Source of the DNA: Lytechinus pictus
Lineage: Eukaryota
Direction of reading: 5' to 3'
Assembly: GCF_037042905.1 (NCBI RefSeq)
Contig: NC_087245.1
Span: 34,350,001 to 34,414,000, forward strand
DNA length: 64,000 nt
Shown: positions 47,057 through 62,812 of the stretch, in pieces
Layout of the letters: each line of letters begins with the position of its first letter
How positions within the stretch are numbered: position 1 is the first letter of the stretch
The notes under the pieces: model-generated
Seen by the model: only the letters and a program-made list of their open reading frames with translations
Databases searched by the model: none
Told to the model about the DNA's origin: nothing
Translations under genes and position numbers: made by a program

Positions 47057-48113
<1,057 letters not shown>

Positions 48114-48902: not shown

Positions 48903-50096
48903 GTAAGTGCTGGTCCGGGCAAGGTGCCACAAATCAAAGTTCAGGGCCCCACCTTACAAATAGTTACAATAGATCTGGGCCCCGTCTTACAAAGAGTAAC
49001 GATTGATCCAATCAATAGTAACTATGAAAATCCATCAGTGTCATAACTTTTTTCCAGGAAATTTGCAAAATGTCCTTTGTAAACAAAGGAGACCACACCA
49101 AAGTGTCAAGAAATCAATGAATTTATGGATATACATTCATATCTACAATGTATATATTTTTTTAACAAACATGCATTTTATATGTTGACTTTGCTGGCTT
49201 TCCATAGTTGCGATTGATCAGATCATTTGCAACTCTTTGAAAGACGGGGCCCTGATCAACCTCAACTATATGGAAATCCATCAATGGCATAATTTTTTCC
49301 TCCAGGAAATTTGCCCAATGTTCTTTGTAAACAAAGAAAAGCACACTAAATTCACAAGAAATTGAATAGAAATATGAATAGACGATATATCTCGAAAATA
49401 TTTTGAACAAACATGCGTTTCAGATGTTGACGTGGCTGGCTTTCCATAGTTGTGGTTGATCGGATTAATTGCAAGTGTTTGTGAGACAAGCCCCAAGAAT
49501 ATCTGTGTATTAAAATAAATGCCAGAAGAGTTAACAATCTGTGCCGGCCACACAAAAACATTGTAAGCGTTCACAGAGCTCTAACAGTAGGCCCAGTTTC
49601 ATCTTTCGTATTGTGATATCAAGATGTGAATAACTTGTTGTTGTGACATTAGGCATCCCTGCAACTATACCAGTTGTAACAGGGCCCGTGTTAGCGGATT
49701 GTTAGCACTAACGATGTGTCTGTGCAGCGGGTACTGAACATGAGTTCAACCTGAATCAAAGGAAAAGACATCCAAATTTTTAGCTGTCTAGATTAAAAAG
49801 GGGGTCAAGTGATTCTGGGAGAATAATTATAATTTCTGAGAAATTGAAAAAAACTCTTTAAGTATCATTGACCTTAAATTCCAATCCCTTAACTACACAG
49901 ATTCAGGTCAATCAAAATTTTAGTTTGAAACAAATCTATCGCAACTCTTTATTAGACGGGGCCCAGAAGTCAAACATGAGCAAAATTCCAGCATGAAAAA
50001 GTTTTGATATTCCATACAAAATTTATGATAAACTAGAGATTGAAAAACTGTTTCTGAAAACAAAGCTCGATTATTCTGCTTTCTCTGTGTATCTAG

Positions 50097-50210
50097 CACC
50101 CGTTTGTTAGGGATGCTAAACCAGTTTCAATTCTCAACACTATGATCAACGAGGCCAATCACATCAGAGAGAGAGAAAAGCTCAAGGAAGATGATGACGA
50201 TGAAGGATCT
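50097..50210 (+). CDS. STK3: Hippo/MST kinase exon 8 (HPFVRDAKPVSILNTMINEA...EDDDDEGS)
   Basis: 114 nt, TAG/GTGAGT; end of kinase domain. Confidence 0.92.
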
Positions 50211-52589
50211 GTGAGTATTATGAAATATTGTCTAAAAATAATAAGGTTTTTCTCTCTTTTTTGTGTGTGTTTTGTGTTGAATGTGGAGTCATTTTAAAAG
50301 GTCAGGTTCAGAGGCAGTGATTTTCCGTTTCTTAAAACATGTAATTTAATTACAGGCTTGATTCAAAATGGAAATTTCATAGAAAATGCACACAGCAAAC
50401 AGCATGAATTCTGTGTTGCAAAGGTATTAAGTTTAATGAATTTTTCCTTATGAAAAGAAAAGGACCACAAAGGAAATTTTTTTTTATTTACCGCTATACC
50501 GAAAATCACTGTCCCTACAGGTTTACTACAAATATATGTCTCATTTTTTGTTGAGTAAATGTGTGTGTTTACGTTTCATTAACTCATCCAACTGAATATT
50601 CATGTCTCCTCATGGGTACTAGAGGCATGTTCTTTGCTTGGTTGTCCATTCATCCATCCAAGTGTGAACAGGTCCAGGGGCCGTTTCATAAAGCTGTTCG
50701 TAAGATAAGAGCGAATTTAAAAAAATTTAAGAACTACTGGTGAACCTTTCTTACGCGCTAAGCCATCACCAATGATGACCAGTCGTTCTTAAAGTCACTC
50801 TTAACTTACGAACAGCTTTATGAAACACATACGTTGGCCACATACGTTGCTTCATGGGAAAGGGTCCATGCCATGTGGGTAGAAAATGGGTCCAAAAGAT
50901 ATTCCCTTGACATCACCGTGTCTCAAGAAAAATGTTTCAGATTTCTACAAAAGGGAGCAAATGGCATATGAACTGTTAATGGTTTTAAATGATGTGTTCA
51001 CCATTTAGAATTATGTAAATTGGAGACACACTTTGCTTATTTACAGGAAATTGCATCTACGGCACTTGCTTCCTTTTGTCAGATTGTGATTTTGAAGGAC
51101 TGCTACTACAATGCAAAGTAAATTTCATAAGAAAATTTCTTTGACTTTAGCTGAATTATCCTTAAAGATATCTTAGAAGATGTCCAATTAGATTTATATA
51201 TATATATATATATATATATGATATAGACATCAACAATGGGTGACATAGCAGGAAAGTCACTCTGAATCATTTATGAATATAGAGTTGATATCTTTTTAAT
51301 AAATGTTTGACAATAATAATCATTTGTGTAGTTGTTCCAACAGAATCTAACATAATATACAACAGAATGACATGTTGCATTAAAAATATGATAGAATACA
51401 TAAGGCTCCCCCCCCCCCCGATGCATTCTCGAAGGTGCCTTGAAGGAAAAAAAATGGAATTTAAAAATTCCTGTATCGAACTCTGGGCAATGTAGCAGGG
51501 GATATCTTAAACATCATATAGTTGTATAAAAAACAAACAAAATCAGCAAATTATATGCTTAAAGTCAATAAATTGCAAAATTCATATGAAATCAGACGTT
51601 GCTAGCATGTCTCAAAGAAATAGCATGCAAATGAGAGAAAATAGCAGAAATTTTGTGGAATAATTTGCATTGAGAAAGCTTTTGCGGAATGAATTAAACG
51701 GTAAGTTTCAAAATGTTGTTTAAAAAAAAAACAGTGATGGAAATGAAGTTCAATCTAATTTACATTGTACGGAATATTCTGTGTTGTGATGTAGGCCCTC
51801 ATCATATGTAGATAAGGCTTGTTTAGACACTGCGTGACAAAGTTCAGGAAAAAAGTTCAACAATATTGTTTATCATCCTGTACATGTAATTGTACTCGTA
51901 ATTTTGGACAAATTTCCTTTTTTTTCAGATTTAATTGATGCATATACTTAATATTTATATACATCAGGGCTCCACACTAACTCTTTTTTTCTACTGGTCC
52001 AACCTGTTCATGTCGGACTGGTCAGTAGATACCCAGTTTTTCCATTTTTTACTGGTCCGCACCTCAAATTTACTGGTCCCCCAAAATGAAGAAAAACATA
52101 AAAAAGACTTTATTTTATTTTCTGGTCTTTTATTGCTTCTATTGCCCCCCCCCCAAAAAAAAACAACATACAAACAGTACACACACACAACATAATTCAC
52201 GAGAGCCATATCTCAACTTTGGAGAGCCATTTTTATCATTTACAAAAGTGGAAAAAATATAATTTTTATCAGTTAGATATATTTTTTACTGGTCATGTCT
52301 GACCAGTAAATCTGGCTATTTCAGAAAAGTTCTGGCCTAACTGCAATTTTTACTGGTCTGAGACCATCGGACTGGTGCCAGTGTCGCATGCTGTATACAT
52401 AGTTGAGAGATTTTCTGCACAATGTCTTGACAATAAAATGTTGTTTGGCTTTAATTCCAGGCTTAAGTTTTTTTAGTGGTGTCTGTACATATACATGTTC
52501 ACACTAACATTTTTGAAAATCATTAATAATTTGATGTGCAGTGACATACATGTACAATTTGTATTTCTCCCTAACATGTGTTTTCTCAG

Positions 52590-52619
52590 GATTTTGAGGA
52601 TGATATATACACCATTGTG
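52590..52619 (+). CDS. Candidate 30-nt cassette microexon A (DFEDDIYTIV)
   Basis: CTAAC branch-like motif, TTTTCTCAG acceptor, GTG|GTAAGG donor, phase 0/0 as required in this intron. Confidence 0.5.
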
Positions 52620-53814
52620 GTAAGGTTGTGCATGCGTCAAATGCGAGAATCATGGAATCATTCAGCATAATGTTCCCTATAGAGGTCCTCTGTCCGTTAA
52701 AAAGAACAATCATGTTTGCGATTGCATCAGGGCATATGCACTTGTCCTTGTCAGCGTTCATTTTCCATCCAGTTGTTAAAACAACCAGGCATGATGAATT
52801 CAGATCGAGTATTTATTTCCAAATTCATTAAGTAGAACACATAATAATGAATAAAATATACATGTATTTTAGATTTAATGTGCATACTGTTACATACACC
52901 AGTGTCTGCCATTTTGCTCAAAATGTATTTCATAGGAAAATGGATTTCAATGCACTTAGAGATATCAAACAGGTACATTGTCTGGTATGGCTATTATTTA
53001 GTATGAAAGCTGTTGTTGATCAACTGCACTGTTTGAGAGAAGAAATGTTAAAAATTATACATTTTTGGTTTCATTTGGTCTTTTTAATATGTGGGTTCTA
53101 AAACCTGGATTATAATTCTGATTTATATAATTGTTCTTTACTAGGAGCATGTTAACATGTGAAGAGTTAAATGTATATCAGAAATAAATAAAATTAAACA
53201 CTAATCTAACATGATTGCTCTACATGTATTTAATTACAGAACATAATGTAAACAAGCTTAGATACTTAAATATAAGAAAAGTTTAGATATTTTACTTATA
53301 AGACTAAGATAATGATAACAGTTGTAAGGTCCTCGTATGAAGCATTTTTGTGATTAGAAATGCATAGATTATTCATATCAAATAATAACTACCTGTAATC
53401 TAATAAAATAAAAACTAATCTGATTGATCTATATTTATTTCATTAAAGAACATTTATGATGTAAACAAGCTTAAAAATAAGAAAAGTTTAGATATTTTAC
53501 TTATGAATGAGAGGATAATAATATTTGTAAGATTGTCATATGAAGCATTTGTATGATTTGAAATGCATAGATCATTCATATCAAATCTATATGAAAATAG
53601 AAATAGAAATTAATCACATACATACTGTAGAGCTCAATTCCTTTCTTTTCTCCCTTGTATCAAAAACCAATTTAAGAGACTGACAAGATAACAATGAAAT
53701 GTACAACATGCATGAGGATAAAATGCAAGTTTTTTGTGATAATTGCTTGGTATAAAAAAGAAGCAATCATATGTATGATTCTACATCCTGTTTAGTCATA
53801 CTAGGGAAAGACAT

Positions 53815-59195: not shown

Positions 59196-59225
59196 GAGGA
59201 AGAGGAGGATACGGAGGTTAGACTG
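59196..59225 (+). CDS. Candidate 30-nt cassette microexon B (EEEEDTEVRL)
   Basis: TACTAACCAG acceptor, CTG|GTAAGC donor, purine-rich body, phase 0/0. Confidence 0.5.
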
Positions 59226-61741
59226 GTAAGCCAATCAGAATTCAAAGAATTTAGTATGCCAAGGAATCAGTCCAGGAATGCTTTTTTTAACAAAGTTATT
59301 TTCAGCATTGCATGCTTCCTAATTTCAGTTGACTCCCACACAAAAATTTGTGTAACTTGCTTTCAAAAGCTGATCCATGAATGTTTTATTTTGCATGTTT
59401 TTTTAAGTTGTTATTGGAATGCATATGTATCAAAGCAAGTGTGTGATTAATGATGTAAAATAGGATTTTTCAGTATTTTTCCTTAATTCTAAAATGCAAA
59501 CTTCATACATTGTTTTTTATGATATTTGCAGTAATTATGATTTAATTATATTGACTAAAGTTTATGAAATGTATATCATTCATGATATGGTATTTTATTT
59601 CTCTGTATCGTACATACATGTACTAATGTTTGTCATAAAGTGATAATTTTAAGATGCATCTATTTAAAGGGGAAGTTCACCCTGACAAAAGTTTGTTGTA
59701 AAAATGGCAGAAAAAAAATAATAAAAAATAATTTGGAGGTTGAGGAAAATCCACCAAAGATTTAAAAGTTATTAGAATTTTAATATTTTGATTTGTGATG
59801 TCATATGCAAGCAGCTTTGACATATATCATAAAGTAAAAATACAAATCAATAAAATGTCATTTAAAAAAAAAATTAAAATGGTTTTTATTTTACCTTTAA
59901 TATATCAACAAATTATTGTACACCCACTCCTGAAAGAAAGAAAAAAATTTCATCATGAACCATAACAAAATTGAAATTTATGCATTTTATATTACCATAA
60001 CATATGGGGCAGCTGCTTGTATATGATGTCACAAATCAGAAAGTTAAAATTCCAATAACTTTCTTCATCTTTGAAGAATTTTCCTCAAACCTTCATCAAT
60101 ATATTTTATTATTTTTTTGATATTCTTACGACAAACTTTTCTTCAAGGTGAACTTCCCCTTTAAGAATCAAAATTATTATTTTTATCATGTATTTATTTT
60201 GGTTTAGTTGAAGTTTGATGCTAATGATGTATAACTAAATCAAGAAAATGTTATTTAATGTTCTTTTTTTAATTTTCTTTAGTTTATTGTAAAGAAATGT
60301 GCATCTTTTTCCTTGCATATATTAAAACTGCTGTATTTTTTCTTGAGCAAGTCTTTCTTTTCAGCAAGCAAATTTCTGTAAATTAATAATTAATACTTTG
60401 GCAGCAGGACTTTTTTGTTCAAAATATCAAGTTGTTATGTATATAATATTTCTTCATATTCCAAGTTAATTTACATCTTTATCTTTCTGTGGTGTGATAC
60501 ATGTAGATGACTGTGCAAGGGTTTACATTGCTTTGTAAATCCCTATTCAGAATACGCATGTATACCAATTTTCCATATTTGATAGAGCAAATCCAAATAT
60601 TTAGAGAAAGCCAAAAACTTTTATCCATATGACCCTTTGTCCCTCTTTTTGTGAAAGTTTGTCCATAGGTTTGTGTAGATAAGTTATCAATGTCCCTATT
60701 TTCAATGTGTACTTGCAATGATGGTAGACCATGAATATGCATGGTAGCATATACAAATTGATATACAGAACAAGCAAATTGGTGTTATCAGAATATTATT
60801 TGTAAATGGTCAAAGGACATGCAAGCAAAAAAAAAATAGTTTGTGTTTAGAGACAACATGCGACTGTGTAAGAAAGCCTTTGATCTACTGTATACTCTGA
60901 AAGGTCTTTCTAATAAAGAGATAAAATCAATTTTGACTATTCATGACTGATATTCATTTCTTTCATATAGAAAATTATTTTCAACCTATCATTATTAATA
61001 TTGCAAAATTTTAAGAATCACCTTAAATTAATCACTCAGTCTGTTTATAAGACAGCACCAGTGTTGGATCTAGCCAGGTTGAACACAATACCATTTCAGG
61101 GGGCCGTTTCATAAAGCTGTTCGTAAGTTAAGAGCGACTTTAAGAACGACTGGTGATCCTTTCTTACGCGCTTAACCATCACCAATGAATATACCATTTA
61201 CCACAAGAAAGGATCACCAGTCGTTCTTAAAGTCGCTCTTAACTTACAAACAGCTTTATGAAACATCCACCAGGGGCCATATTTTTTTATGCACAATAGT
61301 CGACCTCTCAAAATTGTTGTGTCCAATGCGGCTGGATCCGCGTCTGGAGAGCACCAACTCTTTGTATTTTAAGAAGCAGATTGGTTAAAATTCATATTTA
61401 GTGATTTGGTCAATTTCTGTTACAAATTGCTACAATTAGCTCATATTGTGGCTGATCTATTTGAATTCTTCAAGAAGCTGTGAGCACCGAAATCGGTAGC
61501 CTGGTTTACTAGTAGCTGGGGTAATATAGGTATGCCTTGAGCATATTGCTTGGTCCTATAGCTTAAAACATACACTCAGTTGTTCAATTAAATGCACCTG
61601 TAAGTGTATGTCAAACCGTGTACCATATAAAGTTACTATTGAATTTGAATATTAAGTGTTTTTTTATAGTACAGCCCCACATGTTGCAAAATCTGTTATA
61701 CTTTTCTAACTCTACTCCTTTTATCTTTCATTTGATGACAG

Positions 61742-61934
61742 GATGATGAGGATGTTGACAGTGGAACCATGGTAAGAGGGAAAGCCCCCGTGATCGGTGA
61801 TGACGACAACGGTACCATGATCATCAGTGGCTCGGCAGGGAACACGGCAAACACCTTCATTGAACATGAGGACGTAACGGACATTGATAGTGGAACCATG
61901 ATTGAACATGGTACAATGATTGATCATGATAGTG
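61742..61934 (+). CDS. STK3: Hippo/MST kinase exon 9 (DDEDVDSGTMVR...GTMIDHDS); linker with caspase-like site
   Basis: 193 nt, CAG/GTGAGT; EDVD-SGTMVR corresponds to the MST1 DEMD-SGTMVR region. Confidence 0.9.
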
Positions 61935-61970
61935 GTGAGTTCACAGAACTTTGTTCACTATTATATCCTT

Positions 61971-62543: not shown

Positions 62544-62545
62544 AT

Positions 62546-62812
62546 ATCCTTGATACTGGAGCTATGATAGAACATGGTACAATGATTGATCATGATAGTG
62601 GTGAGTTCACAGAACTGTTCACAGAACTTTATGCACTATTATATCCTTGATAGTGGAGCTATGATAGAACATGGTACAATGATTGATCATGATAGTGATG
62701 AGTTCACAGAACTGTTCACAGAACTTTATTCACTATTATATCCTTGATAGTGGAGCTATGATAGAACATGGTACAATGATTGATCATGATAGTGGTGAGT
62801 GTATAGAACTTT
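62546..62812 (+). repeat. Three extra tandem copies (~97 bp) of the exon-9 3' end plus donor
   Basis: TTGATAGTGGAGCTATGATAGAACATGGTACAATGATTGATCATGATAGTG-GTGAGT repeated; the middle copy has GT mutated to AT. Confidence 0.9.

Follow-up and report, generated by a model that had tools for sequence, protein, structure and literature searches.

An optional microexon in the linker of a sea urchin Hippo kinase and a candidate docking motif on the kinase side of its predicted caspase site

In the Hippo kinase, the linker is both the docking place of activating (MOB1) and inhibiting (SLMAP/STRIPAK) partners and the place where caspases cut. The window analyzed here, a 64 kb stretch of Lytechinus pictus DNA, contains the Hippo (STK3/4) gene, and an initial annotation had proposed a microexon in intron 8 that would insert ten residues next to the caspase site. 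Is this exon real, is it used, and what would it add to the kinase? Urchins and starfish split approximately 450–500 million years ago; an optional six-residue motif kept since then points to a cell-type-specific input to a kinase at the core of growth control. Without a mechanism, the exon would be one more conserved microexon.

A short cassette exon in intron 8

Querying with the downstream exon brought up STK3/4 proteins of sea urchins, and the L. pictus isoform X1 protein matched both the window and the sequence that follows it at every residue, except at one split codon. With X1 mapped to the window, all junctions around the two cassette exons described below, A and B, are in phase 0. The upstream constitutive exon (50097–50210, forward strand; X1 residues 271–308) encodes the end of the kinase domain (...DDDDEGS) and is covered by sense RNA reads. 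It is the eighth coding exon, so exon A indeed lies in the intron that the initial annotation had called intron 8. The downstream constitutive exon (61742–61936, forward strand) is defined by the skipping joint 50210->61742 and by alignment to mammalian MST1/MST2. Neither a second Hippo copy nor a second copy of exon A was found: the exon 8 query and the exon A query each matched the genome once, in the window itself.

Exon A (52590–52619, forward strand, phase 0–0) is 30 nt long and encodes DFEDDIYTIV, residues 309–318 of XP_063957126.1. It is preceded by TTTTCTCAG, whose last letter is at 52589. The stretch 52571–52589 (forward strand) comprises a branch-like CTAAC (52571–52575), putative in its use, followed by a pyrimidine tract and a CAG acceptor. 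On the other side are a GTAAGG donor (52620–52625, forward strand), whose junction is implied by RefSeq isoforms, and a TGCATG, a putative Rbfox-type element, at +10 (52629–52634, forward strand), 9 nt past the exon. All of these elements lie where they had first been described, and the proposed in-frame insertion between DDDDEGS and DDEDVDSGTM is confirmed.

We searched both strands of the window for comparable sites, using filters chosen post hoc: YAG, a pyrimidine tract, a branch-like motif, a stop-free length of 9–51 nt divisible by three, GTRAG, and TGCATG within 100 nt. Seven sites passed the basic filter, and exon A was the sole site with all features. No site with all of its features occurred in 300 simulated introns, in which candidates per intron numbered 0.49 with the basic filter, 0.037 with the branch motif and 0.01 with TGCATG. 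With its canonical AG/GT sites (CAG/GTAAGG) and frame-preserving length, exon A is a microexon by the ≤51 nt definition; its 30 nt exceed the stricter cut-off of 27 nt used elsewhere. We also considered whether exon A or B arose as a duplicate of the other, or of the start of the next exon; this was not established (codon-shuffle p 0.05–0.15).

Neural microexons controlled by Srrm3/4 (eMIC) carry a UGC close upstream of the acceptor, and the last 50 nt upstream of 52590 contain no TGC. The downstream side offers a different candidate. Human alternative micro-exons show an enrichment of TGCATG on their downstream side (PMC4317164), and UGCAUG is present in the downstream intron of both exon A (52629) and exon B (59309 and 59392). 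By analogy, inclusion of exon A would probably be aided by an Rbfox protein. A Fox-1_C search of the L. pictus genome gave no match, and its control likewise matched nowhere.

Other parts of the gene are repetitive or alternatively spliced. Positions 47226–48113 of the window hold 7.4 copies of a 119-bp unit that contains kinase exon 6 sequence (its 3' part, with the donor) and run into the intron, and positions 62544–62800 hold 97-bp repeats of the 3' end of exon 61742–61936, including its donor. A joint that goes back 42 letters (61926->61885) was found in 20, 24 and 11 reads of RNA runs X21, X22 and X24 and in none of X23; it probably leads into the next exon, which is repeat-like, or reflects an allele of different repeat length. 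Just past the window (approximately 1541–1630 of L002), an alternative donor shortens the penultimate coding exon by about 30 residues ahead of the SARAH domain; L. pictus, L. variegatus and S. purpuratus models all show it.

Isoform models and RNA reads

Exon A is part of predicted isoforms in four species. It is present in two of the four full-length L. pictus models (X1 and X3, both with A and B; the other two have B only), in two of three L. variegatus models (X1 and X3, with A but no B), and in two of four S. purpuratus models (X1 and X4), where it reads DFEDDMYTIV. One of three Asterias rubens models (X1) has a 14-residue insert ending in DMYTIV, followed by a B-type insert. RefSeq models bearing the exon include XP_063957126.1, XP_063957143.1, XP_041467896.1, XP_011667289.1 and XP_033640262.1, all of them automatic predictions. 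Relative to L. pictus, the peptide is identical at 10 of 10 residues in L. variegatus and 9 of 10 in S. purpuratus; the match to A. rubens covers the last six, which are identical to those of S. purpuratus, giving a common core of D-[I/M]-Y-T-I-V. The starfish exon (AFVKGDEHDMYTIV) is unlike the urchin exon in length and start and was therefore, we infer, not copied by homology. From linker composition, a six-residue urchin–starfish match at that fixed position has a chance probability of ~4e-9. These isoforms bear out the original call of a conserved in-frame cassette adjoining a caspase-type site.

The motif was missing from 16 of the 23 echinoderm records tallied, among them every fetched model of Diadema, A. 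amurensis, Acanthaster, Patiria, sea cucumbers and crinoids; absence from models is weak evidence. It occurred in none of the non-echinoderm proteins among the 214 fetched, a set made from the best 120 of 1196 hits with the clusters of 20 of those hits expanded, hemichordates not among them. Of two metagenome pattern scans bearing on intronic conservation, one gave no hits, and the two hits of the other had no splice context and were judged to be chance.

A second 30-nt cassette in the same intron, exon B (59196–59225, forward strand; EEEEDTEVRL, X1 residues 319–328), had also been pointed to and, by way of isoform models, is real in the same sense as exon A. All four full-length L. pictus models fetched contain it, one B-containing protein derives from a 2.3 kb Logan transcript contig, and two TGCATG elements lie 3' of it (59309–59397, forward strand). 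Besides L. pictus and S. purpuratus, four starfish species and a Diadema model carry B-type inserts, and sea cucumber models have an unlike 10-residue insert. The starfish and Diadema orthologues (P0138, P0140, P0141, P0136, P0024 and P0010) encode DEVD-G or DEAD-G, which we take to be a caspase-3-type site; it is absent from exon B of Lytechinus and Strongylocentrotus, where it would have been lost. A read-through peptide in Diadema, VSQSD, resembles the window's intron after exon B (VSQSE), hinting at conserved donor-flanking DNA. Unrelated optional inserts occur at this junction, before the caspase site, in marsupial STK3 (16–17 residues; P0072, P0129, P0185) and in the nemertean Lineus (11 residues; P0103, P0178). 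The intron 8 position seems to gain cassette exons repeatedly.

The RNA reads present a different picture. Runs X21–X23 belong to one study and were used at ~6% of each run, on the sense strand; in all, 5 of the 24 listed runs were used. The joint that skips both cassettes, 50210->61742, is covered by 27, 45 and 23 reads in X21, X22 and X23 (95 in total) and by 9 in X24, and in X22, 41 loose read ends past exon 8 match the downstream exon with an agreement of 0.98. This form is not among the four full-length L. pictus models fetched. Repeats dominated the alignment that gave these joints, 669 of which fell outside its listing, and exon A is judged on a narrower one made with X21–X23 and the contigs of a run numbered X1. 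With reads aligned on 50060–52760, exon A had a depth of 0 in X21, X22, X23 and the contigs of run X1, as did the whole of 52335–52760 in all four; the exon B bin had a depth of 0 in each of the runs X21–X24. Both alignments placed pieces of 22 letters, so a piece of a 30-nt exon would have been expected to show. The inclusion joint 50210->52590, which had been put forward as a check, drew 0 reads against 95 for skipping in three runs of one study, and inclusion of exon A in these samples is below ~3–4% (0 of 95 reads, 69 start places). Skipping is real in RNA; inclusion is represented by predicted isoforms from four species. Because skipping in the reads is combined with deep conservation, inclusion is likely tissue-restricted. 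Exon 8 itself carries two segregating letters in these data, at 50198 and 50171, with C>A in 15 of 37, 33 of 51 and 4 of 24 reads; the first, 50198, is the D/E change of an older truncated model, P0014.

Could exon A instead be a real but neutral spacer, or a rarely used site that predictors took from noise? The 95 skipping reads with no inclusion would suit this explanation, as would the unrelated marsupial and nemertean inserts, by which the place evidently tolerates insertions. We nevertheless consider it improbable, since six residues were held across the urchin–starfish split while the acidic linker around them drifted, and the models of four species agree.

A further proposal was that skipping of the donor would give a truncated kinase. 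The read-through frame itself exists as described: 16 codons, VRLCMRQMRESWNHSA, run from the donor to a TAA at 52668–52670 (52620–52670, forward strand). We judged it to be intronic and not a used isoform. Its length is chance-like, as 35% of simulated intronic frames run at least 16 codons, and neither reads nor models support its use. Together with a 3' end in intron 8, such a product would mimic the caspase fragment, and an AATAAA does lie at 52850; this nearest signal is, however, one of 15 in the intron. Depth was 0 over the read-through and through 52608–52760 in all four runs, which counts for little given that exon A itself is off in these samples. None of the seven exon A-bearing proteins among the 214 fetched ends by read-through, all continuing into exon B or exon 9. 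Two truncated urchin models, P0014 and P0010, use read-through of other donors, and both look like assembly breaks: the assembly offers no second locus for P0014, and P0010 lies on a 27 kb contig with the remaining gene on another. A stop without 3' cleavage would, in addition, likely make the transcript an NMD target. The cleavage-mimic isoform thus found no support in reads past the donor or in any A-containing model ending there, and we regard it as very improbable.

What exon A would add to the linker

Within the downstream exon, the predicted caspase tetrapeptide EDVD is encoded at 61748–61759 (forward strand), and the first Thr-Met motif comes after it. In the fetched mammalian proteins, the urchin EDVD-S (D334 of X1) aligns with DEMD326 of MST1 and DELD322 of MST2, and caspase cleavage of MST1 at D326 is documented (PMC11804562, PMC4929427). 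Exon A had been suggested to tune this site, and it could do so as an acidic spacer or exosite beside the cut: it adjoins the site, inserting six residues before the predicted P1, MST1 is cut at the corresponding D326 (PMC11804562), and the DEVD-G/DEAD-G of starfish and Diadema exon B means that intron 8 does bear on caspase sites. The adjacency stands, but the tuning is weakly founded. The insertion falls ahead of P6, and P6–P1 all come from the downstream exon, leaving the tetrapeptide unchanged; exon A contains no [DE]xxD-[SGA] site, and its conserved part is YTIV, not the acidic stretch. We give tuning of cleavage little credence. The residues of exon A would instead remain with the kinase fragment.

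This placement leads to the reading that we prefer, at a probability of roughly 0.45: exon A is an optional, frame-preserving exon that may add a phosphothreonine docking motif to the kinase fragment, ahead of the predicted cut. A motif match points to a likely MOB1-type dock. According to PMC5461540, MOB1 prefers pThr with hydrophobic residues at +1 to +3, MST1/2 prefer Thr with a hydrophobic residue at +1, and T353 of MST1 is a high-affinity site. The sequence T-I-V-E resembles the T-M-I-E of T353. The T-I-V of exon A has the hydrophobic +1 and +2 of that consensus (PMC5461540); +3 is acidic rather than hydrophobic, E with exon B or D without it, and T353 also has E there; its +2 residue is not the lysine preferred by the kinase. 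T-I is found naturally at orthologous linker sites, as GTII in S. purpuratus and GTIV in Biomphalaria. I-Y-T-I-V-E/D does not match the SLMAP FHA consensus E/D-G-pT-M-x-R/K given in PMC5663475.

A possible mechanism has three steps. Inclusion would be turned on in a limited cell type, probably with the aid of an Rbfox protein bound to the UGCAUG that follows the exon. The kinase would autophosphorylate T316 (codon 52611–52613, forward strand), giving pT-I-V-(E/D), which would fit the MOB1 pattern of pThr and hydrophobic residues. After cleavage, only the A-containing fragment would retain a dock, because the predicted cut at D334 comes ahead of all 13 linker Thr-Met motifs of X1. Another Thr-Met (residue 285) belongs to the last kinase helix, and S. 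purpuratus and starfish do not share it, so that the cleaved kinase would owe its sole conserved dock of the linker type to exon A. Residues 307–483 have pLDDT < 50 in a predicted structure that is poor overall (mean pLDDT 52).

Other points also count against the docking motif. For a full-length protein that has 13 docks already, one more makes little difference, and the MST2 sites nearest the N terminus contributed little to MOB1 phosphorylation (PMC4511216). Furthermore, because MOB1 does not need residues before pThr (PMC5461540), a MOB1 dock leaves the invariant D-x-Y unexplained. The main rival accordingly places the working residue at the tyrosine (codon 52608–52610, forward strand): the acidic D-[I/M]-Y-x-x-V would be the target of a tyrosine kinase and, once phosphorylated, of an SH2 domain, or would act unphosphorylated as a Yxx-hydrophobic sorting signal. 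This tyrosine is invariant in all seven exon A-bearing sequences and is the only one in the first 200 linker residues of L. pictus (in the isoform with B alone, the next are Y473 and Y481). The acidic residues before it, together with I/M at -1 and V at +3, are in keeping with Src-type and SH2 patterns. This is a match of pattern, however, and T, I and V are equally invariant and fit the linker's own Thr-hydrophobic grammar, leaving a tyrosine motif the less probable reading.

The two cassettes may also be considered together. Kept since the urchin–starfish split, exons A and B could form a splice switch on the caspase-released Hippo fragment, in which A would leave a MOB1 dock with tyrosine-kinase input on the kinase side, so that the fragment still signals to MOB1/LATS, and B (DEVD-G/DEAD-G, in starfish and Diadema) would add a second, stronger cut behind it. 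We offer this combination as a long shot.

Comparison with known systems

The exon is already in automatic annotation and its microexon class is known; no description of it was found in the literature, in a search with subscription papers and bioRxiv supplements outside its scope. The six supplementary files of PMC5703972 gave no match for Stk3, Stk4, Hippo, Mst1 or Mst2, names in place of which urchin exons may carry other identifiers. RefSeq predicted isoforms of echinoderm STK3/4-like proteins carry this exon, or an orthologue of it, at an identical junction, in automatic models with no regulation or function attached.

Like human RBFOX-type micro-exons (PMC4317164), exon A is ≤51 nt, a multiple of three, optional and followed by TGCATG. 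It differs in belonging to an invertebrate deuterostome, with no vertebrate orthologue of the peptide among the fetched proteins and a putative role for Rbfox. The urchin EDVD-S sits at the DEMD326/DELD322 position that releases the N-terminal kinase fragment of MST1/2 (PMC11804562 and PMC4929427); urchin cleavage is a prediction, and a splice-made mimic of that fragment is unsupported. The pThr-Met linker motifs of human MST1/MST2, which dock MOB1 and SLMAP, likewise have Thr followed by hydrophobic residues in an acidic linker (PMC4511216, PMC5461540 and PMC5663475). Exon A differs from them in having T-I rather than T-M, a tyrosine at -1 and optional splicing, and, whereas all seven MST2 sites (T325 onward, in the same sources) follow D322, it lies N-terminal to the caspase site.
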